Part shown: piece by piece, positions 2,770 to 56,969 of the stretch | How the letters are laid out: each line of letters opens with the position of its first letter | Position numbering within the stretch: the stretch's first letter is position 1 | NCBI GenBank assembly: GCA_000004985.1 | Contig: GG738861.1 | DNA from: Naegleria gruberi | Lineage: Eukaryota | Strand: one strand, 5' to 3' | DNA length: 64,000 nt | The notes under the pieces: generated by a model | Database searches by the model: none | Told to the model about the DNA's origin: nothing | What the model saw: the letters and a program-made list of their open reading frames with translations, nothing else | Program-made: the position numbers and the translations under genes

Positions 2770-5700
2770 TTATGATAGGTTGGCATAATAAATCACATTC
2801 GGCACTAGATTAAGCCAAAAAAAAAAACATCGGGAATATTCCTCAACAATCATAGAGTAAATTATTGCAACATATTCCGTGGTTTCCATTGTTATAAATG
2901 ATGGAATGCTGATATTAACAAGAATAGTTTTGCTTACACCTTCCATTTCTGTTGGAATGGATGAAATGACAAAGTCTGAGAGATCGGTGAAATAAATCTT
3001 GTCCACTTGGACAGATAAAGAAGAAGTTTGTAAAACAACCGGATCAGCACTCACAGTTTGTTCCTTAACAACTGAATAAGCAAGTTGTTCAGTCACATTA
3101 ACCAATTGATCGTAAATAATGAGTTGTTCAAGAGTTGATGTAATATTTTCAACAGTCTTTTGCAAATTCTCAACAATTGACAAGACAGTTTGACTTGTTT
3201 CAGTTGAAATTTGAAGATTACTCTTAAGTGCTTGGTCAATTACTTCATTCAAAATAGAAATTGACTTATCAATAACTACTGGAACAATAATTTCATCGCA
3301 CTTAATCACAGAATAAACAGCATAAACAACCATTGATAAAGTTGACTCAATTGAGGTTTCCACTCTTGTAGTTTCCACAGCACTTGTAAGTGTACTAAGA
3401 AGTTGAGTTTGAATTTTAGTAATTGTTTCAGAATCTTGATGTTGAACTTGTGGTAAACTTTGCAACAATTGACTTGTTGAAACGATTGTATTAACAGTTT
3501 GTGAAATACTTTCAATTGGATTACCATCTTGAATGATGGCTAAAATGATTTCGGTTGTTTGATTGGACACCCGTTGCCAAATCTCTTCGACTGTGTTTAC
3601 CACAACTGTTGTCACTGTAATATTTGTGAACATGATTCTTGATTCTCCAGATTGGGTATCAGTCAATTCAACGAACCATTTAACAGGTGCAGATTGTGGA
3701 GTATTTGAACAAGAGGATACCACAGCAGGGATTTTAACAGTATCCTCCTTTGAGACTGGTACTTGAATTTTGATTCCAGTGTCACTATCTACATATCCTT
3801 GGGTGATTTGGATAGTATTTCGTTCATTTTGACAATTTACACATAAAACTTTGAATTCTGTTTCCATGGAAACGCCATTAGAAGGTGTAATACTACATGG
3901 ACATTTTTGTGGTTGAGTTCCTTTTGTAATTGTTGTTGAAATTTCGGTAGAAGCAATTTCAATACCATTAACAATATTAGATTCATTTGTTTGAACATAC
4001 GAAACTTTCAATGCAATACTATTTTCAGTTCCTTCATCAAATTCCCTAGCATCAATAATAATAGCACTTTGTGTATTCTTACTCACAACTTGAACATAAC
4101 TTGAAGTTGATAACATTGTGGTTGTCAAAAAAGAATCTCTTGATTCTATTCTTATAGTTTTACTCTCAGAAACAATGGAGTTGTCAATCTTCCATTCAGT
4201 TTTAATAGAAAGTGATGAATCTGATAAATCCTGTTTTGAGTGAGAGACTTCAATGGAAAACTTCTCATCACTTTTGACAACAGATTTAAAGTCTGGAGAA
4301 ATGTCAATAATATTGAGAATCGGAGGAAAATGAACAAAATTCAAAGTAATAGAACATGAAACCTTTCTTTCTCCTTTTGTAATGCTTAGAGTAAAAGTTG
4401 GTTTCTGTAAAGTTGAAACGGAAAAGTCAGATTTGTCAACATTGAAGAGAGTTAAATGATTCTTGGAATGGAAAGACATTTTGTCAACAACACCATCTCC
4501 ACAATAACCACCAGTTTCAGAATTGACACACGACCATTGCCATAATTCAGATTCGTCTGTGTTGTTTTCTGGATCTTGATAATTGACTTGAATTGTTGAT
4601 GAATAATTACTCACTCTCTTCAATGAAAGATAAAGTGAAAGGTCAGGTTGTTCTGTGTAAATTATCACATAATCGCTCGATGATAAACTTGAATTTTGTG
4701 CAGCTGTAATTGAAATTTGGAAAACGAATTTCCACTTTCCCTTAATGAAACTGTCAATAATCAAATTATTGTAAGCGTCCCTCTTGAATGAAAGGGATGG
4801 ACCCTCAATTTGTTCCCATTCAATATTAATTGTTTCATTCTTCAAATGGTCTGGAATTGTAGTTGTCTTTTTGATATGAACCGACTTTTCAGTTGACTTT
4901 TGTCTAATAATCTTACTACCTGAAATTACCACTGAAGGAACTTGATATTCAATAATTTGGAATGTGAAAATATTAATCGAACTGAATTCATTTGTTACTG
5001 TACTTCTCACAACTAGTGTCAACTTGTAAACTCCCAGTTTTAGTAATCCCTTATCAATCTTAATGGTTGCTTGCTTGTTGGATTTTAAGAAATTTTCAAT
5101 AGTTGAATTGATAGAGTTTCCCTCAATCTTCCAAGTATACTCCAGTTCTTTCCTATCTCCAGAGAAAGAGTATGATCCACTAAATATTATATCTTCTGTT
5201 TCACTGTAAATTCTTTTTGATGACTTCACATCAGCAACTGGACTTTTGACAGTATTTGGAGGCATTAAATAAATAATAGTGTCATCTATGATGGTTCTTG
5301 TAGAAAAAGCTCCAAGTTTGTTCAATCTTCTTGTAAGTGTAGTAAATAGATTTCTGTTCACTCTAAACTGGTTTCCTATGACTGACGAAGAGTTTAGAGT
5401 AAAATCATAATCGAACTGAATCTTGAAATCACCGTTTGCCTTATTAATCCAGAAACATTTAAGTTCTGTGCCGAATAATGGTTGATCATCTATGTAAATA
5501 AGTTTTGAACATGGAACAGAGTTTGGTAAATAGGAAGGTGGAGCAAATAGCTTAAATATCACACCATCAAAGTAATCCGTAACCTGAGAATAAATTTCAT
5601 TGACATAGGTTGAGTTGAATGATTCAAAATAAGTAAAACAATCGCTTCCAAAGTAACCAGTCTGACACGAGTTGCATGAGCTACCATTCCAATAACCATT

Positions 5701-8700
5701 CTTGGAATCTGAAAAACAAATACATTGTCCATTGGATCCACATTGACCATGTCCATTACAAGTTGATTGACTATTACAATAGACATTACATTGTGATCCA
5801 TAACTATTGGATTTACAAGTTTCACAAATCAATCCAGTAAAGTTTCCAATACAATCACAGCTATTATCAGTTCCACAAGAGCCACCATTCAAGCAAGTTG
5901 AACCAGTACATGTTTTAACATTACAATTTGGACCAGCATATGCAGGATGACAAATGTTACAATCAGATCCAGAATAGAAACCATTAGCACTATCTCTAAA
6001 ACATGAGCAAGTGTTAATTCCAACACAGTTACCATGTCCTGAGCAAACATTTGAGTTATTCTTGGCAATAGAGTTGCAATTAAACATTTCACACTTATCT
6101 CCGTAATATCCCGCAACACAGGAACATCCTCTTGTTGAGCAGTTACCATGCTTTGAGCAAACTCTATAATCATTGCTTGAATAAAAATCTTCAACATTAT
6201 TGTATACTCCTTTGCAAAGTAAGTTTTCACATTCATCACCAGTAATCTTTATACTGACACCGTTTGATGAAAAACATTGACAGGTGTCAATATCAGTACA
6301 AACACCTCTTCCTGAACAAACACTTGGATCGAGTGAAGTTTTACCAAAACAAGTTTTAACCTGACAATCTTTATCTCCATATCCATAAGAGCATTGACAA
6401 TGACCATCTTCAAAACATTTGCCCTTTCCACTGCAAACAGTTGGATCATCTTGTCTCTTTCCATTACAACTTGTTATATTACATTTAGATCCAAAAAATC
6501 CAATTAAGCATTTACATAAATCATTTCCTATACATTCACCTTTTCCAGAACAAACAACTGTATCTTCAAGACTTGAAATGCCAAAGCATTCAAAAGTTTG
6601 GACTGTAACAGCCGCATTCAATGAACAGTCTGCTCCAAAGTATCCAGCTGTACAATTACACTTATTTAATGAAAGACAATCACCATGTCCACTACAGACC
6701 TGTGATGAATTATATTCAACTCCTGAACATGTGTGGAATTCACATTCCATTCCAAAATATCCGACATTACATGCACATTGATCCACTTGAGAGCAATTAC
6801 CACGGTTTAAACAAGCACCATTTAGACCTTTTCCAAAACAAATTGGTGATGAACAATCTACACCTGCCCAATTTTGATTGCACGTACAATTATTTGGAGA
6901 GTTACATTGACCATGTGAGGAACAAACCAGTGATGAGTTTGAAAGAATATTGAAACATTTTGGGAGAGCACACCAATCTCCTCCGTACATAGTGTTGCAT
7001 TGACAAATACCACCCACACAAGTGCCATTAGATGAACATACTGATGGGTCATCCTTTGAAATGCCATTACATTTGAGTAGTTGACATTGGTTTCCTTCGA
7101 AATTAGGAGAACAGGAACATGTATCAACACCAGAACATGTTCCATGTCCAGAACAAACTGATGTTTCGTTTGACAATTTTCCAAAGCAATATGGGTATTG
7201 ACATTGTGGACCTCCATAGTCTGAGTTACATTGACATGAATCCAATCCAACACATGAACCATGGGAATTGCAAATAGATGAGTCGTTTTGTAAAGTCCCA
7301 TAACATGTTGTAATTGAACAATTAGATCCATAATAATTTGAAGAACATGAACACGAATTATAATCCATACAAATACCATGCCCTGAACAAACACTGGAAT
7401 TGGTTTTTGCTACAAAGTAACAATCAAAATCTTCACAATTAGATCCATAATAATTTGAAAAACATGAACATGAATTAAATGTTGAACATGTACCATATCC
7501 TGAACAAACCTGACTTGAATTAGAAAAGACTCCATTACATGTTGTAATTGAACAATTAGATCCATAGTAATTTGAAGAACATGAACACGAATTATAATCC
7601 ATGCAAATACCATGTCCTGAACAAACACTGGAATTGGTTTTTGCTACAAAGTAACAATCAAAATATTCACAATTAGATCCATAATAATTTGAAAAACATG
7701 AACATGAATTAAATGTTGAACATGTACCATATCCTGAACAAACCTGACTTGAATTAGAAAAGATTCCATTACATGTTGTGACTGAGCAATTGGCACCATA
7801 ATAATTTGATGAGCAGCTACAGGAATTATATGCTGTACAAGTGCCTTGATTAGAACAACCAGTGGTAATAGAGTTTGAATATCCATTACATGTCCAAGAA
7901 GAACAATTTGAATTGAAATAACCAGTTGAACAGAGATTACAATAACCTCCAGCATAATTCACATCACATGCAAGGTAAATTTTTCTGAGTTCATCGATTT
8001 CTGCAATTACCATCAAATTGCTATCGCTGGCAAAAGCTAAGCCTACAAGTGTATTGAACTTGGTATTGGCCAGAGTTTCTCCATCATTAAATGTGCCAGC
8101 ACTATTGCCAGCATATGACGATATTGTGCCCGTGTTAGCATTGGCAGCAGAGGGTGTGAAAAGTTTAAGCGCACCACTGTCAGTGTAGTATACATTACCG
8201 TTGTCGTTTACAAAAAAGTCTTTGATTGATACAGAAGAGGTCTTAATTAAGTTAGTTTAAACATTTGACCCAAAACTTACAGTACAAATTGTTGTAACTG
8301 TTGAAGCTGTGAAAACTTTTAGATAAAAAGTTGAACCGATTTGTTGAAAGTAATATATCTTTCCGTCAGAAGGTCTTATATTAAAAGAAACTAAAAGAAT
8401 TAAAAGAAAATGTCCGATAACTTACATAGTGATGCAATATTTGCTGATGAAGATGCACCATCAGAAGTGGAAGCACCCCCTCCCAAAACAACTTCAATCT
8501 TGCCAGTTAAAGAGTTGATTTTGTAAATGTAACTGTCTAATGCAAAATAGACCTCACCATTGTAATATTTTACATATTTGACAGACTAGAATAAATTGGA
8601 TATTCATTTAATATTCATTCATTTCAATATTATAAAAATACTTACAATAATAGTACAAGCAGTTGGAGTGTTTCCATTAGCACATACTGGTCCAGCTGAT

Positions 8701-10271
8701 ACACCAGCTACAACCGTTACTAAACCAGTGCTTTTAGAAAGTAATTTGATATATATTCCAGTAGAATAAGAATCGACTGTTATATGAAAAATGTAACCTC
8801 TAAAATTCCATAATATAAAACTTACTCAAATAGATATCTCCAGTTGGAGTGCATGTCATAGATATAATGTTAGAATATCTAGCAGTCACATATGAACCTC
8901 CAATATTGTCAGATCCACTTGGGGCTTTGTTATTATAAGGAAGATAAAAAAATCCTGCGTAATGCTTAATTGTTGAACTTGTTAAATTGTAAAACTTAAT
9001 ACTGGTTGAGTCAGCCATATAAAATCCATCGCTGTATAAAGCAATTGCACTTGGAGCCAATTTAAGAGTTTTGGCATTTCCTTCATTCAACACGTTTCTG
9101 TAGTGCAAAAAAGAAGACAAAGTAGTTCCAACAAGTTTTCTAATGTTGTAAGAATTTTCAGCAAAGTAAAGATCACCATTTGTTGGATCAATAGTTAAGT
9201 ATTCAATGAAACCAATTATTGAAGATGGTGTAATAGTTCCATCTGCTGACTCACCTCTATATCCATTACCCAAAACTTGTTGCACAATTCCATCGGTTGT
9301 TAGTTTTCTAATGCTATAATCATATGCATTCCAATAAAGCTCATTATTGTAGCAGTCCATCTTGGTAGGATAGTTAGTTGTATCCATTAGATACGAGGTT
9401 CCAGAAATACCTGTACTTTTTGAAGCACCATTTCCAACAACTGTTGTGACATTAATAGTTCCTCCACTTTCAGTCAATTTTTGAATATAGTTTTTACTGG
9501 CAGATACATAAACATAAAGACCTCCATTACAATATTTGATTTGCATTGCAAAACCTATTAAACCAGTTTTGTAAACACTAGCTGCATTGGTTGTTCCATC
9601 AATTTTTCTAATCAGCCGATTGTCTTTTCCAATAGTCAAGGAACCTCAAACAATTAATACTTACTATAATCTGCATAATAAATGTTATCTGAAGGATCTA
9701 CAGTTATTGAGGAAGAAGAACCGGTTTGAACCAAGAGAGGATTTGAAACAGTATTGTCAGAGTTTCCAATTCCAGCACCAAAAATTACCGAAACTTGACC
9801 AGTGGATGAATCTAATTTTCTAATTCTAACTGTTCCATCAATCCAAATTAAGTCTGTTTTCCATCTTATTAAGCTTTTTGGTGTACTCATTTGAGTCGTT
9901 GTGGGATCAGTTGTGTATGTTGATCCATATGTACCACTTCCAACCTTTACATAAAATTAACCAATAAAAACTTCTAGAAAACCTACAACAGTTGAAATAA
10001 TACCTGATGAAAGAGTAATCTTTCTAATTGTTGCTGACTCGGTCGTGTACAATACTCCGGCCGTAGCATCTAAATAAATATATCCAGGAGAAACTTGATT
10101 ACTTGAGATTGGTACATTGTTCAAAGCACTAGACATTCCTCCAATTACCATGGATTTGTAGGTTCCTGTGCACGCCACATTATTATTGCTAATATTCAAA
10201 ATAATTATCAAAAAACAAAGTAATAAGGCTATGACCTCATTCTTTGATGTTGTTGAATAGAAGCACCACAT
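2770..10271 (-). CDS. Multi-exon gene: signal peptide + NHL-repeat beta-propeller + ~25 EGF-like (tenascin/laminin-type) repeats + Ser/Thr-rich region; giant secreted/surface glycoprotein
   Basis: The 1748-aa ORF 2770..8016 actually continues open upstream to ~8256 and encodes NHL motifs (KDFFVNDNGNVYYTDSGALKLF...). Further NHL exons lie at 8827..9639, 9654..9890 and 9957..10271, separated by short GTAAGT...TAG introns (for example 8778..8826 and 8586..8645 on the minus strand). The first exon starts at ATG 10271 with a signal peptide, MWCFYSTTSKNEVIALLLCFLIIILNIS. EGF units follow the CxxHGxC...C.C...YyGxxC pattern and carry many N-x-S/T sites. Confidence 0.75.
7382..7849. repeat. Near-perfect 2 x 234-bp tandem duplication inside the EGF region of the 2770..10271 gene
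   Basis: The string cctgaacaaacactggaattggtttttgc recurs at 7382 and 7616. The protein repeats the 78-aa block NG(I/V)FSNSSQVCSGYGTCSTFNSCSCFSNYYGSNCE(Y/D)FDCYFVAKTNSSVCSGHGICMDYNSCSCSSNYYGSNCS(V/I)TTC twice. Confidence 0.85.
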
Positions 10272-13197: not shown

Positions 13198-16100
13198 ATG
13201 GCAATAATACAAAGAAGGACTGCAACAATTGCATCCTTGTTGATTATTGTATTATGGTATTGCTTCTGTACTCAACACAGCATTGAGGCGAGTAACCCAA
13301 AAGTAGTGGGTGTCGTATCAACTATTGGAACTGATCAAGATAATGTGAAGACTTTGTATGACTTTGGACCCGATTGGAATGAAGGTACATACGCTTACTG
13401 GGGTGTTTTCAATGGTTTTCAATCAGGAACAATCTTCTTTAATGGTGACACCACCCCATTATTGGCTGGGTTGAATCCATCCAACTATATGTGTGTGGTA
13501 ATGTATTCGTCAAACAAACCCTCAAATGAAATTGTTCAAAAGGGTTGCCTCTATTCATCAAAGCAATTAGATATATTCTCAGCGACTGCATCAGCATACG
13601 GCTTTTATGTTACTGTTAGAAATTTAGGTTCGGTAGTGATGGCTGAGCAAGAATTTCCACCAGGAACATTCATTACAAGATTAAACCTAGAAGCAATAAC
13701 AGTTGAAAATGGGGCCAAAGTTGTTCATTCCAATGCAACCAATTACGTTGCATGGAGTGGTATGGCACGTTTAGATTTCAAGGAAGCTGATTTTTTGGTT
13801 GTGGTTGGTAATGCTCAATGCTCTCTCTCAAGTCAGGATACTGACAAATTAATCTTTGAAGATTCGTCCGAGTTGACTCTTCCACATACATGCGAAATGA
13901 CTTCTTTCGCTGCTCTATACACTGCAACTTATGATTCAATGACCTTGGGAAAAAAGCAAATGATAGAACAAATTAACCAAAGAAGTACATTCATAAAGAA
14001 GGTTATCAAGTCATCTACTACTTCCTTCTGGGTATATGGTAATTTTGTTGACTATACTTTATTTGATAATGAGAGACGCTATGGAAAACAAGCTCCTTTC
14101 TTTAGTTATTATGAAATTGACCCAAGCAATACCCAACCTTTCACACGGAAACACAGTACGTATATTTCTTCGTTTCAACCAACATACTCGGCTGAAGCAA
14201 ACGATATGAAAATAATTCCAGCTGACGGACAAATTGAAATATACATTGTTGGTTATGTGGAAATACCAAGCTCATTTTTATGTTGCTTCTTGAAGATTGG
14301 TACTGCCGAGCCATATCGAGCTAGAAAGCTAGAAATTGAAGGTGATGTAGTATTTACAGGAATAGATACCAACACAAATACTCAAGAAGTAATCGTTACG
14401 GGTCACTTTGCAGGTACAATTCAAATTGGTTCCACCAAATTGACAAGTAGTGGAGGACGAGATATTGTGGTTGCTGCTTTCAAAAGAGTTACTTTAGATG
14501 CTGTTTGGGCTATTAAAGAAGGAGGCTCAAACGATGATTATTCATATGGAATTAAGAATAATAATAATGAATTCATATCAATTTTTGGCAAACTTGGCTT
14601 GAATCCAAAATTTGATGGTAAGAATGTATCTGTTTCTGTGTCAACTGCATCAAACGGATTCATTGCGCATTTATCAGATCCTAATTATTGTTATGGAATT
14701 GCTAGTAATACTGAGACTGTTTGTAATGGTCATGGTCAATGTCAAAAAGATGGCAGTTGCCTTTGTAGTTCAGGTTTTGGAGATCAGTGTGAATTCCCAA
14801 CTTGTAACGAAATACACTTTAATGAAACAAATGTTTGTAATGGGCATGGTAACTGCACTGATTATGATACTTGTTCCTGTAATGATGGATGGACTGGTGC
14901 TAATTGTAATATACCTGTTTGTTTTGGTGTTAGTGAAGGTGAAAGTTGCAGTCAACATGGTTCCTGCATTTCAAATAATACTTGTCAATGTAATAATGGA
15001 TGGTTTGGAAGTAACTGCTCAATTCATTCATGTAATGGAACAAGTTCACAAGATGAGCAAAATATTTGTAATAATGGCAATGGTATATGTGTATCTGCAG
15101 ATATGTGTTCATGTAACCAAAATTGGACAGGTCAATTCTGTGAAATTCCTAAATGTTTTGGATTGAATTCAAGTGATATTTCAGTTTGTTCAAGTCATGG
15201 GCAATGTATTAATGCTAACACTTGTAGTTGTAATAAGGGATGGTTTGGAGCTGATTGTTCAATTCATTCATGTAATGGAACAAGTTCACAAGATGAGCAA
15301 ATCGTTTGTACTAATGGCAATGGTAAATGTGTATCTACAGATATGTGTTTATGCAATCAATATTGGACTGGACAATTCTGTGAAATTCCAAAGTGTTTTG
15401 GATTACCAGCAAACGATTCAAATGTATGTGCTGGTCATGGTAAATGTCTCTCCCCTGATGTTTGTTCTTGTAATCCTAAATGGTTTGGGGCTAAGTGTAA
15501 TTTCCCATCTTGTTTTGGAATTCCATTTTACAATTCTTCAGTTTGTTCCTCCCATGGCCAATGCATAACCTTGGACACATGCAAATGTCTAGATGGATAT
15601 GATGGAGAAACTTGTTCCTCTCATTCATGCTTTGGTTTTAAATCCAATAATGACTCGAGAGCTTGTACGAATGGTCAAGGAAAATGCACAGGTGCTAATC
15701 AATGTACTTGTTTGGAATCCGAAAGTGGAAGAGCAATAGGTCCACAATGTGAAACGATTTTATGTAAGGCAGGAGTTGATATGTGGTTACCACAAAAAGA
15801 TCCAAAAGTTTGTTCTCAACATGGTATATGTAAATTCAACATGTCAACTGTTGGATGTTTTTGTGAGGAAGGTTACGAAGGGCCAATATGTCAGTATCCA
15901 ATCTGCTATGGAATTTCATCGAATTCAAAGAAAGTTTGCAATGGAGTTGGTAAATGTAATGCTCCAAATAACTGTTCATGTTTTGATAATGATATTGATG
16001 GTCACTTTGTTGGAACAAATTGTGACAAGTGTAAAATTCCATACTCTGGAATTAATTGTACTGTTATTGAAAAGTGTAATGCTACATTGAAATGCAATTC

Positions 16101-23571: not shown

Positions 23572-26500
23572 TTAAAGCATTAACAAGCACATCATGATTG
23601 AAACCAGTAAGGAAACACTGAACGAAATCATTGCAACGTTGTTGACACGAGCTGAAACCTTTGGAATAAAAGGAGCAGGAGAAGATTTTGGAGAGACAAC
23701 AGGTGTTGGAATAGCCTTTGGTTGAGCAGTTAACAAATATTTGCCAGTTGAAGAGACAGAAACAGTTACAGAGTTACTGGTCTTGGAAATGACTGAACAA
23801 CTGGTTGAGAGTTGATAATTATTGGTTGCTGAATTGTAAACTTGACAATAGACATCATATGCAGAAACCGATCTTGCCATTGTTATATCCTTTGAGGTAG
23901 AGAAGGTCAATTCGGCAATAGAACTTGAACTAGAAACGGTAACTGCAGATTTTTCAGCAAGAGAAATATCAAGAGCATCTGAAACAGAGTTGGTGACTCC
24001 GCCACTTGATGATTTTACCTTAAGAATGAGAGTCTTGTAATTAGAAACAAGATCAGAAAATTTAGCTGCCATTTTGAACTTATTTCCATTAATAATATCT
24101 TGTAAATTATTCAAAGTTGCAATATTGACCTTTCTTGAATAAGTAGTTGTTTGATTAGCAACAATATAGTTGGCTGGAAGGTCAGCAACTGTATCCTTAA
24201 CGAGAGCGCTTGATAAACTGTCATACGTAGCTTGAATATTAGTAATATCAGAATTGGAGAATGATCTCTTTGAAACACCCTTTGCTACAATAAATCTATA
24301 GAATTTATCAGCAGCTTCCTTCGCCTTTGTCAACAGTTCAGTAGCCAATTTAACTTCATCACTCGAAGCAGCATTAGCAGCAGTTTGAGCAAGATTGGTG
24401 ATCATCTTGGAAATAATGTCATCGACAATATATTCCAAACTTGAAGTACCAGAAGAAATCATTGACAATTTAGAGGAGGCAGAGTTAGTATTTTCAGAAG
24501 CAACAGATTGAGCCTTTGCTTGATTGTCCAAATAGGAAAGAATCATATTGGAAGTCAATTTTGCAATTTCAGCTTTTTGCTCAGCAGTTGCACCAGCAAT
24601 AGAGCTAACAACCTTAATGACAGCAGATACGGAAGCAAGGGTTGGTGTTTCCTTCGCAGTTGATTCAATAGAATTCACTGCTTGAGTGGTAGTTGGTTGA
24701 GTAACAGCTACAGAAATTTCAGATTCTGTAAATGCCAACTTGGAATCATAAACTGCAACTTTAAGACGGAGTTGAGAACTGCTTGAAGAAGGTAATTTGA
24801 TTCTTGTAGATCTAGTTTCAGTTCTCTCCGTCAATGCAGTCCAAGAGGATGAAATGTCATCATAATAGAAGAATTGATAGGTAAGTGGCAACTGAGAGTC
24901 TGTCCAACCATTTCCACATTTCAATTCGAATAAGGTACTGAGAGCAACACCAGATTGTGGACTAGCTTCGAAAATACCTCTTGTTGGAGGAGAGTTTACA
25001 TTAACACTTGTTGTAGCAACACCATTCTTTGAACCATCAGTAATATTCAAACTAATAGAGTATGAAGCGCCAGCACTCAACAATGATTTTGGAATCTTGA
25101 TAAAGCTGGAAGTTTGGGTGAGTGATGATAAATCAAACTTATCAGAGAACCAGAAGAAGGTTGGAGATGATAAAACTTCAAGAGAGGAATAGGTCAAATA
25201 CAAATCAGATGATGGGCTAACAAGTGAAAGATCGCTATTAGAAGTAATTGAAGCTCTAATCAAAGTATTCTTTGGAACGGACTTAGCTTTAACAATTAAA
25301 TTAGTTGATGCAGATCTTGATCCCTTAACAACAGTAGCAGTATACTTGTATTCACCAGCAGAGAGGAATGTGGAGAAGGTTCTTTGATTTAAATTTGGAG
25401 AAGAACATGACTTAATGTTGACAATATCAAAACATGTGATAGTGACAGTTTCTGAATCAGACGTACTACTTGGATCAACAACTGCAACAGAGAAATCCAA
25501 TGAATCTTGAGTTGATTGAGTAATGTCAGAAATGTTGAATTGAATAGTCAAATCTTGAGCTACAGCAGTTACCTTGAAAGGAAGAAATGCATCGTTAGCA
25601 TTGTCAGAAACAGCCCTAAGGATAAAGTAATAATCGCCTTCCTTATTAATATCAGTGAAGGATTTACCAATAGCGAATAAATTATTACTAGATTTTGGAG
25701 TTACAACTGATTTAGAGGCTGAAGAAGTATCAACAGAATAGGTATAATCAGTTTGATAATTTCCAGAATAACACTTTGGGAATTTGATGACTGGTGTCAA
25801 TACAATAGTAGATCCAATCATGTAAGTCACAGAAATACCTTCACTGAGTGATAGAGTTGGAACTGGATTGCTAACAACATTCACGGTAACACTTGATGTG
25901 GCAACTTTAGAGAATGCAGTTGTGACAGTAACTTGAATAATGAATGATCCACCAGAAATTGCACTCAATGAAGAGGAGCTGAAATCGACAATAGCGCTTG
26001 AAGTTTTAACACCACTCAAGTAAGTATTCAAAGCATTCATTTCACCAACAGTTGGACCGTTAGTGACATACCAAGAGAATAACAATGCACGACGATCTGA
26101 TGAAACTGATCCAGAAGCATCCAAATATAGAGTATCACACTTGGAAACAGAGCTCTTATCAGAAACTAGATTAACACTTGGAGGAAGTGCAACAAATGTA
26201 CCAGAAGAAACTGTAACAGACAATGTTTCAGCGCTTCCTGGGAATTTGAATAATCTCAAAGAATTACCTGGTACAATATTTGCACTGGTTCCTAATATAA
26301 TTTCCAAAGAGGAAGTTGCAGAATTCAAAATACATTTAGCATCAGAACCTATCAATGATAAATCAGAGCTAGAAATGACATCTGAACAATCTGATTGTTT
26401 CAATAAACTTGATTTGACTTCACCAATAATTGACCCACCAGTTGAAGTGAAAACAAAACTATTAGAATTAATTTGGAAATCACAATTGCTTCCAAACCAT

Positions 26501-28425
26501 CCATTCAAACACTTGGCACAATTACTGGAAGCATCAAAGTTTCCATAACAAGTACATGAGCCATCATTATTACAGTAACCTTTAGAGGAACAATTACTAA
26601 CACTATTACAAGTAATTGAGCAACTGGAACCAACAAATCCACTAGCACATTGATCACAATATGTACCAACAAAGTTACCTTCACAAACACATTTCAAATT
26701 AACACAATTACCTCTGGAATTACAAGTTTGAACTCTATCACAAACTGGAGTGTTACAATTAGCTCCTGAATAATCAAGTGAGCAGCTTGAACAAGATTTA
26801 CCATCATTGTAATTAATTGGACATGAACACTTATTAGGAGCTGAACAAATACCACGAGATGAACAAACACTAGAGCTTGACTTGTCAATTCCATAACAGC
26901 TAAACGTTTGACAAGCTGTACCATTATAACCTTCAGAACAATGACAGATATTTGGAGCAATACATGAACCCTTTCCAGAACAAACTCTATTATCGGTAGC
27001 ACTAATTTCAAAACAAACGGGAATATCACAATTATCACCAACAAAACCATCAACACATTTAGAACAAAACTTGGATGAATCAAAGTTACCATTACAAGAA
27101 CAAACATCCTTTGAAACACATGAACCTCTATACGAACATCCTCCTTGAGATTCACTCAATCCATTACAAGTAGTGTATTGACATCTATCACCAGTGTAAC
27201 CACTATTACATTCACAAGTATTTGGGGCAGTACAATTACCTTGTTTGTTACAACCAGATGTACCTGTTTGATTGTTACAAAGTGGAATAGTACAATCACT
27301 ACCAGTATATCCACTACCACAAACCATAACACTACACTGAGAACCAGTAAAACCTGGATAACAATCACATTGATCTTTTCCTATACATTTACCCTTACTT
27401 GAACAAACAGATGAAGAATTACTCAAAGTATTAAAACATCTTGTTTCAGAACAAGATGGACCTTCCCAACCACTCTTACATGAACATTGATTTAGTGATG
27501 AACAGTTACCATTAGATGAACAAACACTTGATTGATTGGCCAAAATACCAAAACATGAAGTAATTTCACACAACTTGCCATAGAATCCACTATTACATTG
27601 GCAAGTATTTGGACCAACACATTGACCATTTCTTGAACAAACAGTTTGATTGGAGTTGGTTAAACCAGAACAAGAATATGTTTGACATTCAGAACCAATG
27701 TAACCACTCTTACATAAACAGCTATCAACAGAAACACAAGTTCCTGATCCAGAACAAACAGATGAATCAGTAAAATTCTTTCCAAAACATTGATGAATCT
27801 GGCATTCTAATCCACTGTATCCATTATTACATTGACACATATCTTGAGAAATACAAGTACCTTGATTACAAGCTTCAGCTCTTGGCTTAGTGAAACATGT
27901 GATATTCTTTGAGACACAAGTATTTGGAGCAATACATGTATCGTATTGTCCACAGGATTGAGTTTCGTTAGCCAAATAATTATTGCAAATTGGCATGTTA
28001 CAAACACCAGCAGGTCCATAACCTGATTTACATTCGCACTTGTCAAAATCACTGCAGATACCTTTCGAAAAACAAACTTGAGGTGATTGAGAATCGATGC
28101 CATTACAAGTTGTAAAAGAACAATTGTCTCCGTGGTAATTTGTTGAGCAGATACAATCATCGAGACTAGAACATGAACCATGGGATGAACAAACCTTGGA
28201 ATCGTTAGCTGGAGTACCATAACAGGAAGGAATTTCACAGAATTTTCCAATAAATCCATTAACACATATACAACCGCCATCCAGACATGTTCCATTACCA
28301 TTACAGATATTTTCCAAATGAGTAGATCCACATTTAACTGGTTCTGGTTGTGGGGTTTCCGTTGTTGTTTCATTACAGAATGTTCCATTGATATTTGAGT
28401 TACAAATACAGACACCGTTCAACAA
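23572..28425 (-). CDS. C-terminal ~1600 aa of a giant surface glycoprotein: Cys-repeat and EGF-like modules, long Ser/Thr-rich region, C-terminal GPI-anchor-like hydrophobic signal
   Basis: The ORF begins inside a 43-aa repeat unit (CICNSNINGTFCNETTTETPQPEPVKCGST...), so it is not a real N-terminus. It ends ...SARVNNVAMISFSVSLLVSIMMCLLML, which is GPI-signal-like. It is contiguous with 28510..31428 except for two 1-nt homopolymer deletions. Confidence 0.7.
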   Translation of the reverse strand: MLNGVCICNSNINGTFCNETTTETPQPEPVKCGSTHLENICNGNGTCLDGGCICVNGFIGKFCEIPSCYGTPANDSKVCSSHGSCSSLDDCICSTNYHGDNCSFTTCNGIDSQSPQVCFSKGICSDFDKCECKSGYGPAGVCNMPICNNYLANETQSCGQYDTCIAPNTCVSKNITCFTKPRAEACNQGTCISQDMCQCNNGYSGLECQIHQCFGKNFTDSSVCSGSGTCVSVDSCLCKSGYIGSECQTYSCSGLTNSNQTVCSRNGQCVGPNTCQCNSGFYGKLCEITSCFGILANQSSVCSSNGNCSSLNQCSCKSGWEGPSCSETRCFNTLSNSSSVCSSKGKCIGKDQCDCYPGFTGSQCSVMVCGSGYTGSDCTIPLCNNQTGTSGCNKQGNCTAPNTCECNSGYTGDRCQYTTCNGLSESQGGCSYRGSCVSKDVCSCNGNFDSSKFCSKCVDGFVGDNCDIPVCFEISATDNRVCSGKGSCIAPNICHCSEGYNGTACQTFSCYGIDKSSSSVCSSRGICSAPNKCSCPINYNDGKSCSSCSLDYSGANCNTPVCDRVQTCNSRGNCVNLKCVCEGNFVGTYCDQCASGFVGSSCSITCNSVSNCSSKGYCNNDGSCTCYGNFDASSNCAKCLNGWFGSNCDFQINSNSFVFTSTGGSIIGEVKSSLLKQSDCSDVISSSDLSLIGSDAKCILNSATSSLEIILGTSANIVPGNSLRLFKFPGSAETLSVTVSSGTFVALPPSVNLVSDKSSVSKCDTLYLDASGSVSSDRRALLFSWYVTNGPTVGEMNALNTYLSGVKTSSAIVDFSSSSLSAISGGSFIIQVTVTTAFSKVATSSVTVNVVSNPVPTLSLSEGISVTYMIGSTIVLTPVIKFPKCYSGNYQTDYTYSVDTSSASKSVVTPKSSNNLFAIGKSFTDINKEGDYYFILRAVSDNANDAFLPFKVTAVAQDLTIQFNISDITQSTQDSLDFSVAVVDPSSTSDSETVTITCFDIVNIKSCSSPNLNQRTFSTFLSAGEYKYTATVVKGSRSASTNLIVKAKSVPKNTLIRASITSNSDLSLVSPSSDLYLTYSSLEVLSSPTFFWFSDKFDLSSLTQTSSFIKIPKSLLSAGASYSISLNITDGSKNGVATTSVNVNSPPTRGIFEASPQSGVALSTLFELKCGNGWTDSQLPLTYQFFYYDDISSSWTALTERTETRSTRIKLPSSSSSQLRLKVAVYDSKLAFTESEISVAVTQPTTTQAVNSIESTAKETPTLASVSAVIKVVSSIAGATAEQKAEIAKLTSNMILSYLDNQAKAQSVASENTNSASSKLSMISSGTSSLEYIVDDIISKMITNLAQTAANAASSDEVKLATELLTKAKEAADKFYRFIVAKGVSKRSFSNSDITNIQATYDSLSSALVKDTVADLPANYIVANQTTTYSRKVNIATLNNLQDIINGNKFKMAAKFSDLVSNYKTLILKVKSSSGGVTNSVSDALDISLAEKSAVTVSSSSSIAELTFSTSKDITMARSVSAYDVYCQVYNSATNNYQLSTSCSVISKTSNSVTVSVSSTGKYLLTAQPKAIPTPVVSPKSSPAPFIPKVSARVNNVAMISFSVSLLVSIMMCLLML

Positions 28426-28429
28426 GTTC

Positions 28430-31250
28430 CATTATAATAGCAATTATTTTCTTCAACGGTTGATCCACAGTTTAATTGGTTCAGTGGAACAGAGTATTCT
28501 GGTGTGCTTTCATTGCAAATGTTCCGTTAACGTTGTATTGCAAATACAAATACCATTTACACATGTTCCGTTACCATAACAGGCATTTTCTTCCAATGTT
28601 TCACCACATTTAATTGGTTCAGGATGTGGGATAACTGGTTCTGTATTTGTTTCATTGCAATATGTACCATTAATGTTTGAATTACAAATACAGACACCAT
28701 TAATGCAAGTACCATTTCCATAACAAATATTTTCATATTCAGTGATACCACATTTAACAACTGGTTCTGGTTGAGGTGTTGGAGTTTCAGAAGTCTCATT
28801 ACAGAAGGTTCCATTAACGTTTGTATTACAAATACAAATACCATTTACGCATGTTCCATTTCCATAACAATTATTTTCCTCAATGGTTGTTCCACATTTA
28901 ATTGGTTCAGGTTGTGGAATTATTGGTTCAACAATGGTTTCATTACAGAAAGTACCGTTTGAGCCACCTAAACATGAACAAATACCATTCAAACAAGTTC
29001 CATTTCCATAACAATTATTTTCTTCAACGGTTGATCCACATTTAATTGGTTCAGGTTGGGGAATTGGAGTTTCTGGAGTTGTTTCATTACAGAATGTTCC
29101 GTTTACATTAGAGTTGCAAATACAAATACCATTTACACATGTTCCGTTACCATAACAGGCATTTTCTTCCAATGTTTCACCACATTTAATTGGTTCAGGA
29201 TGTGGAGTAACAGGTGCTGATGTTGTTTCATTACAATATGTACCATTAATGTTTGAATTACAAATACAGACACCATTCAAACAAGTTCCATTTCCATAAC
29301 AATTATTCTCATCTTCAGTGAAACCACATTTAACAACAGGTTCTGGTTGAGGCTCATGACTTGTTTCATTACAGAAGGTTCCATTAACGTTGGTAATACA
29401 AACACAAATACCATTCATGCAAGTTCCATTTCCATAACAATTATTTTCTTCAATGGTTGATCCACATTTAACTGGTTCAGTTGGAATTTGAGGTTCTGAA
29501 GCAGTTGTTTCATTACAGTATGTTCCGTTCATACCCTCAACACAGATGCACAATCCATCAAGACATGTGCCGTTACCATAACAATTGCTTTCTTCCTGAG
29601 TTGTACCACAAATAATTGGTTCAGGTTGTGGAGAATCAGAATTTGTTTCATTGCAATATGTACCATTTACGTTTGAATTACAAGCACAGACACCATTGAT
29701 GCAAGTTCCATTTCCGTAACAGTTGTTTTCTTCCATGGTTGATCCACATTTAACTGGTTCAGGATGAGGAATTGGAGTTTCAGGAGTTGTTTCATTACAG
29801 AATGTTCCGTTTACCTTTGAATCACAAACACAAATACCATTTAAACAGGTTCCATTACCGTAACAGTTATTTTCTTCCAATGTTTCACCACATTTGACAG
29901 GTTCTGGTTCTGGAGTAACTGGTTCTGTAGTTGTTTCATTGCAGAATGTGCCATTAACATTCTCAAAACATACACACAAGCCATCAACACAAGTACCATT
30001 TCCAAAACAGTTATTTTCTTCTTCGGTCGAACCACATTTAACTACTGGTTCTGGTTGAGTTGGATCTTGAGTTGTTTCGTTACAGAATGTACCATTCACG
30101 CCAATAAAACAAATACAAACACCCTCAATGCATGTACCGTTACCATAACAAGTATTTTCTTCTATAGTTTCACCACATTTGACAGGCTCAGGAACAACTG
30201 GATCTGGAGATGTTTCGTTACAGAATGTACCATTAATATTCTCGTTGCAAACACACAAACCATCAACACATGTTCCATTTCCGTAGCAGCTATTTTCTTC
30301 TGTTGTTTCGCCACATTTAATTGGTTGAGTTGGAACTTGAGGTTCAGTAGGATTAGTTTCGTTACAGAATGTACCATTAACATCTTGATTACAAACACAG
30401 AATCCATTTACACAACTTCCATTGTTGTAGCAATTATTCTCTTCCAAAGTTTCACCACATTGTAAAGGTTGTGGAATTTCAGGTTCTATATTTGATTCAT
30501 TACAGAATGTACCATTTGCGCCTTCTTTGCAAATACAGGAGCCACCAATACAAGTGCCATTACCATAGCAGTTATTTTCATCTTCTGTAAAACCACATTT
30601 AACTGGCTCTGGTTGAGTTGGGATTTCAGGAGCTGTTTCGTTACAGAAAGTACCATTAGCGCCTTCAATACAAACACACAGTCCATCAAGACATGTTCCA
30701 TTACCATAACAATTACTTTCTTCCTGAGTTGTACCACAAATAATTGGTTCAGGTTGGCTGGGAACTGGACTGGTTTCGTTACAGAATGTACCATTACTAC
30801 CTTCATTGCAAGTACAAAAACCATTCTCACACGTACCATTGCCATAACAATTATTCTCTTCTTCTGTAGTACCACATTTAACCAATTCTGGTTGTGGTTC
30901 CATGCTGAAGGTTTCATTACAAAATGTACCATTAACATTCTCGTTACAAATACACAAACCATCGACACATGTACCATTACCATAACAAATATTTTCATCT
31001 TCTGTGAAACCACAGTTAACTGGTTGAGTAGGGACTTGTGGTTCTTGAGTTGTTTCATTACAGAATGTACCATTCACACCTTCAATACATATGCAGAAAC
31101 CATCGACACATGTACCATTACCATAACAATTTTGTTCTTCCAATGTTTCACCACAAGTGGTAATGGTATCATTACAGAATAAACCAATGAAACCTTCTGA
31201 ACATTGACAAACACCACGAGTACAATTACCATTAGAATAGCAAGATTGTT
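28430..31250. repeat. Tandem array of about 24 x 129-bp coding repeats (43-aa Cys module)
   Basis: The periodicity is visible in both the nucleotide and the protein sequence. Units are roughly 70-95% identical. Confidence 0.85.
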
Positions 31251-31428
31251 CATCTAATGTTTCACCACAGAAAACATCCTGACATTCCATTGTACCCAAG
31301 AGGTCACATGTCTGGGACAATAAACATTCAGTGTCTGAACTGCATGTTGCTGATACGAGACCAACAGCAGCAATTACAGAAAGTACAATTAAAAGTATTG
31401 TTGTTTTGAACAGCAAGTTACTTGCCAT
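28510..31428 (-). CDS. N-terminal part of the same giant gene: signal peptide plus about 22 tandem 43-aa six-Cys repeats, VKCG.T.EEN.CYGNGTC..G.C.C....NGT(F/Y)CNET, with Pro/Thr/Glu linkers
   Basis: ATG at 31428 begins MASNLLFKTTILLIVLSVIAAVGLVSA, a signal peptide. The repeats are highly regular, about 129 nt each, with three N-glycosylation sequons per unit. Confidence 0.75.
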   Translation of the reverse strand: MASNLLFKTTILLIVLSVIAAVGLVSATCSSDTECLLSQTCDLLGTMECQDVFCGETLDEQSCYSNGNCTRGVCQCSEGFIGLFCNDTITTCGETLEEQNCYGNGTCVDGFCICIEGVNGTFCNETTQEPQVPTQPVNCGFTEDENICYGNGTCVDGLCICNENVNGTFCNETFSMEPQPELVKCGTTEEENNCYGNGTCENGFCTCNEGSNGTFCNETSPVPSQPEPIICGTTQEESNCYGNGTCLDGLCVCIEGANGTFCNETAPEIPTQPEPVKCGFTEDENNCYGNGTCIGGSCICKEGANGTFCNESNIEPEIPQPLQCGETLEENNCYNNGSCVNGFCVCNQDVNGTFCNETNPTEPQVPTQPIKCGETTEENSCYGNGTCVDGLCVCNENINGTFCNETSPDPVVPEPVKCGETIEENTCYGNGTCIEGVCICFIGVNGTFCNETTQDPTQPEPVVKCGSTEEENNCFGNGTCVDGLCVCFENVNGTFCNETTTEPVTPEPEPVKCGETLEENNCYGNGTCLNGICVCDSKVNGTFCNETTPETPIPHPEPVKCGSTMEENNCYGNGTCINGVCACNSNVNGTYCNETNSDSPQPEPIICGTTQEESNCYGNGTCLDGLCICVEGMNGTYCNETTASEPQIPTEPVKCGSTIEENNCYGNGTCMNGICVCITNVNGTFCNETSHEPQPEPVVKCGFTEDENNCYGNGTCLNGVCICNSNINGTYCNETTSAPVTPHPEPIKCGETLEENACYGNGTCVNGICICNSNVNGTFCNETTPETPIPQPEPIKCGSTVEENNCYGNGTCLNGICSCLGGSNGTFCNETIVEPIIPQPEPIKCGTTIEENNCYGNGTCVNGICICNTNVNGTFCNETSETPTPQPEPVVKCGITEYENICYGNGTCINGVCICNSNINGTYCNETNTEPVIPHPEPIKCGETLEENACYGNGTCVNGICICNTTLTEHLQ

Positions 31429-55251: not shown

Positions 55252-56663
55252 TGCGTCGACCGGGAATTGAAATTTCCTTTTTTGGAATTCATTTAACTTT
55301 TAATTTTATGATGAAATTATGAATTATTTATTTTAATATTATTCATGATGTGAAACATCATGTTGAATTCTGTTCATTATTTTTAATTCATGATGTGAAA
55401 CATCATGTTGAATTATTAACAAATGTTGTTCTTCAATTTTTCATTGAATGTTGTTCTTTCAATGAATGTTGGAATAAGTGTCCAGTATATGATAGAATTG
55501 TTAATACAAGTAAGTTTTCTATTATTTTATATTTATTAATTGACTCACGGGTAATGGAATTTCCTTTTTTGTAAATCATCATGATTGATGATGATTGATG
55601 ATGATTAAATAATAATAATTTATTATTTTATAGATGATGGTACAATTAGATTTGTTAGTACATATCCTAATTGTATTTTAAAGAAAGAAAATTCACCAAC
55701 TAAAATTGAAGATATTATTCGTGAATATGAAGATGTAAAAGTTGTTTTAAATGAATTAGGTAAATCAACAACAAAAATTTATTCATCAGATACAACAAAA
55801 CATATGAATTTCCTAAAAGTTTTATTTATTTATGTAATGGTAATATTAAATATGATCAATCATTAAATATATCACAAGGAATTTATACAATTAAAATTCA
55901 AGATGATGAACATGATCACAAATATTATTATTTATTCGGAAGAGGTTTATTATTTCTATCAATTACATTACAAATGATTCCAACATTTAGTTTAAACAAG
56001 TATTATTATGAAATTGTATTGAATGATTTAAGTAACACATATTTTGATAAGAATGAAATTATTCAATATAAAATTGAAATTTTGCCATCAAATATTATTC
56101 AACAATATTCTAAACGAAAGTTTCTTGTTAGAAAAGATAGTCAAAAGAACTCAAGATTTATTACATATCAACCTGACGCTCAATCACCATCAAAGAAAAC
56201 AAAGAAGAATAACATTATTGAAAGTGATATTGAAGATTTCGATTGCAATATTAAAGATATTGATGATTGGGTATAGGGAAACGGAATTTCCTAATTGGGA
56301 ATGTCATCACACAATAAATTAAATTTATTATTTATTCATTGATGTTCACAAACTGTGAATTAACACATTACATGATGAAACAATTCAAACATTTACTCAA
56401 ACTTTAAACATTAACCATCGGGTAACGGATTTTAATACATGTACTAGTATGTTTATTAATTGGTCGACGCACATAAATTTAAATAAACAAAATTAACAAG
56501 ATTTTAAACAAAATCCTACATAGAGTTGGAGAACGGGAAATGAAATTCCCAAATTGAAATTGAGAAACAACTATTCATTTCACAATAATTCATACTATCA
56601 AAATGAATTGAACCCGGGTCACGGCGATGGCAACGCCGTATTCTACCACTAAACCATCGACGC
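55252..56663 (-). tRNA. tRNA-Gly(GCC) gene split by a 1334-bp insertion in the T-loop
   Basis: The 5' part at 56663..56606 reads GCGTCGA TG GTTT AGTGGTAG AATA C GGCG TTGCCAT CGCCG TGAC CCGGG TTCAATT. The 3' part at 55271..55252 reads TTCAATT CCCGG TCGACGC A. T-stem and acceptor are perfectly complementary, and TTCAATT is present at both junctions. Confidence 0.8.
55272..56605 (-). mobile_element. 1334-bp insertion in the tRNA-Gly T-loop, probably composite. Contains AT-rich ORFs and several internal 'GGAAAT + tRNA 3'-end-like' junction motifs
   Basis: It starts CATTTTGATAGTATGAATTATTGTGAAATGAATAGTTG..., similar to the Asp insert start, and ends ...CCAAAAAAGGAAAT next to the duplicated TTCAATT. 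There are no terminal inverted repeats. It carries a 100-aa ORF (55974..56276) and palindromic tcatgatgtgaaacatcatg direct repeats at 55343 and 55389. Confidence 0.55.
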
Positions 56664-56969
56664 TTCTTGTTAAGATATTAAGGTTCCTTAATTTAATATA
56701 AGGAATATCCAAAATGCTTAAAGTACAACACAACAAGAATTGAGTATTCGTTTGAACATGCTGTAAAATATTTCAAATTATGCTAAGATCATTTGATGTA
56801 TTTAATGCCATAGGGCATTGAGAGCCATCATTTGAAGATTCAAATAGTATGTTCTTGATTTTATCTGATAAAGCACAAGAATAACATTTCATCCACTAAA
56901 TTTTATAAATGTTGACTGTGTTACATAATAGTATTTAATTATTATTGAAATGAGGATAACAATAAATTA

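Follow-up and report, generated by a model that had tools for sequence, protein, structure and literature searches.

Is the DNA upstream of a very long EGF-encoding reading frame in Naegleria gruberi part of one gene with the EGF repeats, and does it encode a β-propeller placed N-terminal to them? The question arose from a window of 64,000 nt of contig GG738861.1 (assembly GCA_000004985.1), in which an original prediction had read positions 8016-10271 as exons for at least five NHL-type blades, preceded by a signal peptide exon and followed by about 25 EGF units. Six intronless ORFs of the window match proteins of N. gruberi strain NEG-M with full identity. We characterized 8016-10271 as the 5′ portion, predicted to be spliced, of a large N. 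gruberi gene on the minus strand that seems to lack annotation and extends from 10271 to 2770. The predicted product is, with high probability, a secreted or cell-surface glycoprotein combining an NHL-type head, an EGF rod, a PKD-like segment and an REJ module.

The gene model consists of seven exons on the minus strand (10271-9987, 9944-9665, 9623-8826, 8776-8646, 8585-8426, 8390-8281 and 8241-2770) separated by six introns of 35-60 nt; all introns are bounded by GT..AG and five of the six begin with GTAAGT. An annotated paralog has a comparable intron of ∼40 nt. The joined exons make 7,236 nt in one frame with zero internal stops, giving a predicted product of at least 2,411 aa. The splicing is deduced from the sequence alone. 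We estimated the chance probability of the 588 stop-free head codons as ∼3e-20, given the local base composition, and that of an open frame of 2,411 codons with six intact splice sites as ∼5e-81; in addition, three exon junctions restore the register of the canonical NHL motif, as judged against the NHL consensus.

Exon 1 (9987-10271) carries the start codon, the signal peptide (aa 1-34) and NHL-type blade 1, which matched the HMM of the NHL unit with an i-E of 1.2e-7; the signal peptide, once assigned to an exon of its own, is thus encoded together with a blade. An in-frame stop lies four codons 5′ of the ATG at 10271, which opens a signal-peptide-like hydrophobic segment, IALLLCFLIIIL, with a Kyte-Doolittle mean of ∼2.0. 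Intron 1 (9945-9986; 42 nt, GTAGGT..AAG) contains an in-frame stop of the ORF, and its splicing restores IRKITLSSGIISTV followed by VGSGTYGS; splicing of intron 2 (9624-9664; 41 nt, GTAAGT..AAG) yields the canonical NHL motif YYADYN/NRLIRKI (the slash marks the junction). Between these two introns exon 2 (9665-9944) encodes blade 2 and the first half of blade 3, as placed by the exon chain and the NHL unit HMM, while exon 3 (8826-9623) extends from the second half of blade 3 to the start of blade 8, with an AF2 model and Foldseek matches described below.

The exon chain also places intron 3 (8777-8825; 49 nt, GTAAGT..CAG), intron 4 (8586-8645; 60 nt, GTAAGT..TAG), intron 5 (8391-8425; 35 nt, GTAAGT..TAG) and intron 6 (8242-8280; 39 nt, GTAAGT..AAG). 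An alternative acceptor for intron 5, located 16 nt downstream, was rejected because the frame then meets a stop. Together with the NHL unit HMM, the same chain assigns the remainder of blade 8 to exon 4 (8646-8776), blade 9 (NGEVYFALDSYIYKINSLTGKIEVVLGGG) to exon 5 (8426-8585) and blades 11-12 to the start of exon 7 (7969-8241). Blade 10 (DGKIYYFQQIGSTFYLKVF) falls in exon 6 (8281-8390), and has a conserved counterpart at the paralog locus L001, where blade exons lie directly 5′ of the EGFs. All three blade peptides quoted in the original prediction were located on the minus strand: GDLYFAENSYNIRKLV in the 8826-9623 exon, NGEVYFALDSYIYKINSLTGKIEVVLGGG in 8426-8585 and DNGNVYYTDSGALKLF at ∼8200.

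Could the NHL exons and the EGF array be two genes? The program-made list of ORFs starts the big ORF at 8016, the position given for its start in the original prediction as well, and the coding sequence upstream of it is broken into short ORFs; on these grounds 8016-10271 might be read as a gene separate from the EGF ORF. We consider such a division very improbable. The EGF frame stays open upstream to 8241 and there encodes blades 11-12, no ATG start with a signal peptide is present ahead of the EGF array, and the N. gruberi protein EFC41042.1, annotated as a single protein with head, EGF, REJ and TM parts, is collinear with our gene across the junction. As a single uninterrupted exon encodes both blades 11-12 and the EGF array, fusion of NHL and EGF parts needs no splicing assumption. 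Frame continuity and the collinear annotated paralog therefore bear out the proposal that the NHL exons and the EGF array form one gene. The warning that the head is missed if only the long ORF is annotated proved apt: a protein collection of 5.8 billion sequences held no high-identity match to the head, or to the REJ part of the locus.

The head itself, 689 aa long once spliced, comprises the signal peptide followed by ∼12 divergent NHL-type blades, counted from the sequence; this corrects the figure of at least five and leaves their NHL-type nature standing. The Pfam NHL profile PF01436, suggested as a check in the original prediction, gave no match to the whole head or to single exons even at E<=10, hence no score reached the gathering threshold. 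TEN_NHL scored 19.1 bits, under its 27.1-bit cut-off, and a scan of the head with NCBIfam produced nothing relevant. The head is NHL-type on the evidence of transitive homology, profile-profile comparison and the fold match of exon 3. A homology search with the head returned 75 matches, each of them a PF01436 protein, at 22-34% identity, with coverage up to 97% and a best E-value of 1.3e-33. With exon 3 as query, an exhaustive search yielded 7,375 matches at E<=1e-3 and 1,724 at E<=1e-10; the three checked against Pfam were all NHL proteins (P0108 and P0211 by our own scan, P0110 by a precomputed domain list). Searching PDB sequences, we observed a match to the NHL domain of SOQ1 (E 5e-4), and hhalign aligned the 12 head units, with hand-chosen unit boundaries, to canonical NHL units with a probability of 97.3% and an E-value of 1.8e-11.

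The AF2 model of exon 3 (pLDDT 74.7) has four complete four-stranded blades. Foldseek matched it to SOQ1 (4e-12) and to teneurins (3e-10 to 2e-7), the best eight PDB matches being SOQ1 and teneurin NHL domains with a query-normalised TM-score of ∼0.65. Homology, profile comparison and fold thus uphold the reading of the upstream exons as NHL-type blades behind a signal peptide. In the predicted protein the ∼12 blades would most likely form two six-bladed propellers. No further copies of the NHL head were found within the window.

Downstream of the blades the EGF array occupies 5638-7968 (aa 680-1456). It contains 119 Cys with a period of ∼39 aa, corresponding to ∼20 EGF units rather than the ∼25 first proposed. 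The EGF profile search, also suggested earlier, gave strong Pfam matches: EGF_TEN reached 152 bits (cut-off 65) and EGF_Teneurin 134 bits, with 14 stretches each for EGF_2 and EGF_Teneurin. By these profiles the units are classified as teneurin/tenascin-type EGFs. Among ∼350 retrieved sequences this EGF type was seen only in Naegleria or Naegleria-like proteins. The rod is rich in N-glycosylation sequons, and part of the array was recently duplicated in tandem (7298-7596 versus 7532-7830, copies 93.6% identical).

The rest of the product (2770-5637), delineated by Pfam and by paralog homology, consists of a weak PKD-like segment, the REJ module and a C-terminal region. Pfam REJ (PF02010) reached 71.6 bits (cut-off 25), matched best over ∼4728-3511, and is preceded by a weak PKD_4 match. 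The REJ module and the absence of a membrane anchor had gone unmentioned in the original prediction.

The end of the gene bears on whether this copy is functional. Homology to paralogs stops near 2830, and downstream of ∼2830 neither paralog tblastn nor a three-frame reading of 1850-2900 revealed a GPS-like region, TM helix, hydrophobic segment or homologous sequence. In comparison with the paralog the C-terminus is truncated, the last ∼200 aa including the TM helix being absent. This copy without a membrane anchor is either secreted or 3′-truncated. One could argue that it is a non-functional 3′-truncated pseudogene, or a local mis-assembly in a repeat-rich paralog cluster, with the family architecture real and this locus unexpressed; the early end of paralog homology, the lack of any public protein matching the locus, four N gaps in the neighbourhood, with gaps at 1862-1911 and from 16986 onward, and a 202-bp repeat, 99% identical, adjoining one of these gaps are all in line with that. 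We regard it as possible but unlikely. The 2,411-codon frame and its six splice sites are intact throughout, which would make any inactivation a very recent event; the gene is truncated in the interior of the contig and not at a gap; and an anchor-less secreted variant is plausible as well.

Is the architecture a peculiarity of this locus? The closest annotated counterpart, EFC41042.1 (UniProt D2VQ49, NAEGRDRAFT_71165), is an uncharacterised N. gruberi predicted protein of 1,843 aa encoded on a different scaffold. As in our gene, a signal peptide, a divergent NHL-like head, tenascin/teneurin-type EGFs and REJ follow one another in this order; the differences are its ∼8 EGFs, shorter head, and C-terminal TM helix with a cytoplasmic tail. 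The head and the EFC41042.1 N-terminus form a collinear alignment (E 2e-15) that reaches the first EGF. P0086, a member of the 90%-identity cluster of EFC41042.1, shares 45% identity with the EGF-REJ part of our gene across 1,187 aa. Pfam leaves the NHL identity of the head undetected in EFC41042.1, just as in our gene. Paralogs end either in a single transmembrane helix with a short tail or in a GPI-like hydrophobic end. By collinearity and similarity the gene is placed, as a predicted member, in the EFC41042.1-like paralog family, from which it departs in having no C-terminal anchor.

A second N. gruberi protein, EFC47410.1 (D2V6A0), and the metagenomic P0255 likewise have a signal peptide and tandem NHL blades followed by EGF of the same CxSGxGxC..CxC..yxG type. 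In contrast to our gene, their NHL repeats are canonical (EFC47410.1 matched PF01436 at 5e-79), they have one or two EGF units, and they lack REJ; P0255 directly ends in a hydrophobic anchor. A homology search with EFC47410.1 was dominated by NHL proteins, mostly from metagenome assemblies, and P0255 was the one further NHL-EGF protein recognised among them. The architecture of NHL head, EGF and REJ is rare among NHL proteins and recurrent in N. gruberi: it had been called unusual, which holds for NHL proteins generally but not within this species, where EFC41042.1 and EFC47410.1 resemble it.

Genes neighbouring ours in the cluster carry the same stalk with different heads or none; one has an unknown domain of 500 aa. 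For the head of a neighbouring gene (13198-14697) the Pfam search was empty, and a single-sequence AF2 model (pLDDT 35.9) was unusable. Rfam had zero matches in the window.

The variety of heads on one stalk, along with the character of the head's matches, raises the question of origin. The head could have come by horizontal transfer from a bacterial tandem-NHL surface protein and been fused to an existing Naegleria EGF-REJ stalk, a scenario compatible with our main explanation. The head's matches are mostly metagenome assemblies and every organism-named match is bacterial; EFC47410.1 is 41-57% identical to the NHL proteins listed, the organism-named ones including Spirosoma and Fibrella. Still, such a transfer appears doubtful to us. 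The head is only 22-34% identical to any match, the gene holds six spliceosomal introns, so that any transfer would be old, and high identity among regular repeats may mirror conservation of the consensus.

Returning to the single-gene reading with an NHL-type head, one could speculate on function from the domain content. The propeller head would serve as a distal ligand-binding or adhesion module, held off the membrane by a stiff EGF rod above the REJ module; the protein's likely task would be to recognise substrate, prey or other cells. A bolder proposal is that Naegleria independently assembled a teneurin-like propeller-on-EGF-rod in a type I chain and diversified it, by placing different heads on one common EGF-REJ stalk, as a system for recognition of prey, substrate or kin; under head swapping the set of heads in the cluster may comprise the NHL propeller, the unknown 500-aa domain, or none. 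We advance this proposal as a conjecture with a small chance of being right. If true, a free-living amoeboflagellate would possess a clustered, fast-evolving family amounting to a metazoan-style adhesion receptor that arose convergently beyond animals and the unicellular lineages nearest to them.

With the gene as modelled, the N. gruberi gene set gains one unannotated gene of ∼7.5 kb, and an uncharacterised family of REJ-containing paralogs is seen to have an NHL-type propeller as its N-terminal region; its members are candidates for Naegleria surface adhesion and recognition proteins. All parts are known domain types and no long-standing question is opened. Our literature search turned up nothing on Naegleria NHL/EGF/REJ proteins, and the combination of an NHL head, a long tenascin-type EGF rod and REJ was not described in the literature searched. 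We see in it an example of protist shuffling of 'metazoan-looking' extracellular modules.

Several known systems share some of these modules. In sequence and fold, the nearest relatives of the head are bacterial tandem-NHL surface proteins and the lumenal NHL domain of SOQ1 (PDB 7djl and related), a protein of the thylakoid that also has thioredoxin-like domains; none of these relatives has an EGF stalk or REJ. What our gene has in common with the Polycystin-1/sea-urchin REJ receptor family is a large extracellular region in which a weak PKD-like segment precedes an REJ module that passes the Pfam cut-off; the head and stalk domains differ. GPS, PLAT and the 11-TM channel-like region had no Pfam match in our gene or in EFC41042.1 (the latter at E<=10); TM helices number one in EFC41042.1 and zero in our copy. 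The juxtamembrane region of the paralog looks GPS-like by eye, and was dropped as a GPS motif for want of a Pfam GPS match. The tenascin layout, with FN3 repeats and a fibrinogen globe after the EGFs, is not reproduced, as Pfam matched neither FN3 nor fibrinogen.

A further parallel is with metazoan teneurins. These are type II proteins with membrane-proximal EGFs (PMC5851990), whose tenascin-type EGF rod carries a distal six-bladed NHL propeller mediating trans interactions (PMC5851990). Kinship with teneurins, whether as a true relative or in an ancestor-like form with rearranged domains, would account for the EGF_TEN score of 152 bits and the 14 EGF_Teneurin stretches, the weak TEN_NHL match and the presence of teneurin propellers among the best fold matches. 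Yet we find this descent hardly credible. Pfam detected no TTR domain, FN-plug, YD shell or toxin-like C-terminus of teneurins in the 2,411-aa product; an REJ module, absent from teneurins, is present instead; the head is nearest to bacterial-type NHL arrays and SOQ1; and the EGF matches reflect a widespread tenascin-type EGF, present in ∼20 units here against eight in teneurins. Membrane topology is opposite as well (for the teneurin side, PMC5851990): the signal peptide is N-terminal, the head precedes the EGFs and the paralog's TM helix is C-terminal, while in teneurins EGF comes before NHL in the chain. The two systems share an EGF rod by the membrane with a distal NHL propeller, and the spatial layout proposed here would match that of teneurins, with a chain direction that, in a type I protein, would be opposite. 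The original description of the order as inverted relative to teneurins is thus correct only for the linear chain. Read from the membrane outward, the predicted type I proteins of Naegleria and the type II teneurins have the same order, EGF rod and then propeller.

The predicted gene that joins NHL-type blades to EGF repeats lies on the minus strand. Its exon chain was built from the DNA and checked by script: 10271-9987, 9944-9665, 9623-8826, 8776-8646, 8585-8426, 8390-8281 and 8241-2770. The six predicted introns (42, 41, 49, 60, 35 and 39 nt) all have GT..AG borders, five starting with GTAAGT, and the predicted spliced product has 2411 aa with no internal stops. The ATG at 10271 follows a stop located four codons upstream and precedes a hydrophobic segment resembling a signal peptide. 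In the head (the NHL-type blade region of 689 aa, exons 1-6 and the start of exon 7) there are 588 stop-free codons, with chance probability of ∼3e-20 at this base composition. At three predicted junctions, IRKITLSSGIISTV|VGSG, YYADYN|NRLIRKI and GDIYL|IDSYSTG, the canonical NHL motif register was restored; the reference was the consensus YIADxxNxRIRKVxxxGxIxTxAG from bona fide NHL arrays. The frame of the EGF ORF stays open upstream as far as 8241 and encodes the last two blades there; thus, the NHL-EGF fusion is independent of any splice prediction. When the minus strand was read in three frames between 10500 and 7900, all the peptides quoted in the original prediction were present. The observation of NHL-EGF architecture in the predicted gene is confirmed, and the fusion is well supported at the level of the DNA sequence. 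Searches among 5.8 billion proteins returned no high-identity match for the head, nor for the REJ part; hence the gene appears to be unannotated.

HMM searches with Pfam NHL and EGF models had been proposed originally. EGF families were found in the array; a direct Pfam scan gave no PF01436 match in the head even at E≤10, and the TEN_NHL score (19.1 bits) was below the 27.1-bit cut-off. The head matched 75 of the 5.8 billion proteins with identity of 22-34% and query coverage up to 97%, and each of the 75 contained PF01436. Exon 3 alone gave, in an exhaustive HMMER search, 7375 matches at E≤1e-3 and 1724 at E≤1e-10. The best solved structure related to the head by sequence was the plant SOQ1 NHL domain (E 5e-4). 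An HMM built from one bacterial NHL unit found nine units in the head, while reading by eye with alignment gave 12 units repeating every 40-60 aa; the profile of these 12 units, with hand-chosen boundaries, was aligned by hhalign to a profile of canonical NHL units with a probability of 97.3% (E 1.8e-11). The AlphaFold2 model of exon 3 (265 aa, 48-row alignment, pLDDT 74.7) has four complete four-stranded blades. Foldseek against PDB ranked the SOQ1 NHL domain first (E 4e-12), followed by a teneurin-like protein, teneurins 2 and 3 and fly Ten (3e-10 to 2e-7, TM ∼0.65); SOQ1 and teneurin NHL domains were placed above WD40, YWTD and other propellers. Sequence comparison and modeling together support the NHL-type character of the head, and its expected arrangement would be two six-bladed propellers.

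The array itself (aa 680-1456, window 7968-5638) has 119 cysteines in units of ∼39 aa, which makes ∼20 EGF-like units rather than the ∼25 estimated originally. In Pfam it scored 152 bits for EGF_TEN, and EGF_2 and EGF_Teneurin matched 14 stretches each. A two-EGF unit is tandemly duplicated on the minus strand (7298-7596 versus 7532-7830, 234-nt period, 93.6% identical); this duplication is recent. On the 3′ side of the array there are a segment weakly resembling PKD and a REJ domain (71.6 bits against a cut-off of 25), the latter missing from the original prediction. Of the 38 N-glycosylation sequons in the product, 23 fall within the EGF rod.

With the REJ half as a query, the sole cluster matched was P0086, from a metagenomic contig, whose 90%-identity cluster includes N. 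gruberi EFC41042.1 (D2VQ49, 1843 aa). This paralog starts with a signal peptide and a blade-like head in which Pfam detected no NHL, followed by ∼8 EGFs, REJ, one TM helix and a short tail; its N-terminus is collinear with the predicted head up to the first EGF (24% identity, E 2e-15). In the paralog-bearing contig L001, which includes a ∼40-nt intron, blade exons immediately precede the EGFs. The HMM of the EGF unit matched only four of all 354 retrieved proteins: EFC41042.1, P0086, EFC47410.1 (D2V6A0, N. gruberi; signal peptide, 10 canonical NHL repeats, one EGF) and the metagenomic P0255 (signal peptide, 11 NHL repeats, ∼1.5 EGF units, hydrophobic tail). The architecture, described earlier as unusual, is therefore rare across NHL proteins at large, yet it recurs in Naegleria (EFC41042.1, EFC47410.1), and annotated paralogs within the N. 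gruberi genome weaken the claim of novelty. Another N. gruberi protein, P0110, combines 17 NHL blades with a Ser/Thr-rich stalk and a C-terminus that is hydrophobic; together with P0255 it suggests that Naegleria-like amoebae have a broader range of NHL-headed surface proteins.

Similarity to the paralog ends near 2830, with ∼200 aa of the paralog still to come, and the gene terminates at 2770 without a TM helix; neither tblastn nor three-frame reading found an anchor exon downstream. As the break is inside a contig, away from gaps, this copy either is a secreted form, or was truncated recently, or reflects mis-assembly at this site. A plus-strand ORF adjoining this end (1913-2509) is cut by an N gap; its C-terminus is rich in Cys (CFCGNQLNLSNRRTCCNCLDGICEGC...), and Pfam gave no match. 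Abutting the N gap at 1862-1911, a 202-bp stretch (1660-1861) is 99% identical to 6280-6481 in the EGF array, with the remainder of the left-edge paralog only 71% identical; gene conversion or an assembly problem could produce such a repeat.

The interval 1-31428 contains a cluster of at least four EGF-REJ paralogs encoding surface proteins: a left-edge copy extending beyond the window edge; the NHL-headed gene (2770-10271, minus strand, no anchor found); a plus-strand gene from 13198 with a C-terminal TM helix and a distinct 500-aa head (13198-14697; no Pfam match, and an unusable single-sequence AlphaFold model with pLDDT of 35.9); and a minus-strand gene (23572-31428) in which EGFs directly follow the signal peptide and the tail is GPI-like. 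The last consists of two long ORFs (28510-31428 and 23572-28425) with a short spacer that repeats adjacent EGF sequence; this points to an intron, a frameshift or an assembly error. Heads in the cluster are thus variable on a common stalk (NHL, the 500-aa domain or none), and anchors are a TM helix, a GPI-like tail or none. The window is gene-dense (30-37% G+C, four runs of N) and carries a tRNA-Gly(GCC) gene (56593-56664, minus strand) and six intronless ORFs identical to N. gruberi NEG-M proteins on a 507-kb scaffold, among them EFC45734, EFC45735, EFC45850, EFC45851, EFC45853 and actin.

The product is probably a surface glycoprotein that is either secreted or tethered to the membrane. A stiff, glycosylated EGF rod would hold the NHL head outward, above the REJ module, and the distal propeller could bind a ligand or a like molecule. 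We rated the gene as a lineage-specific variant within the modular class of surface receptors that combine a beta-propeller with EGF repeats; it is useful chiefly for annotation and comparative work.

A polycystin-1-type protein was considered and rejected, since Pfam found no GPS, PLAT or multi-pass region in the gene or in EFC41042.1. Nor is the protein a teneurin, as its topology is the reverse and Pfam detected no YD shell, TTR or FN-plug in the product. In teneurins, which are type II, the EGFs lie next to the membrane and the NHL propeller, which mediates trans interactions, is farther out (PMC5851990), whereas the Naegleria family is type I, with chain order NHL-EGF in place of EGF-NHL. 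The order originally called inverted is so in the linear chain, but because of the type I topology the order from the membrane outwards is the same as in teneurins.
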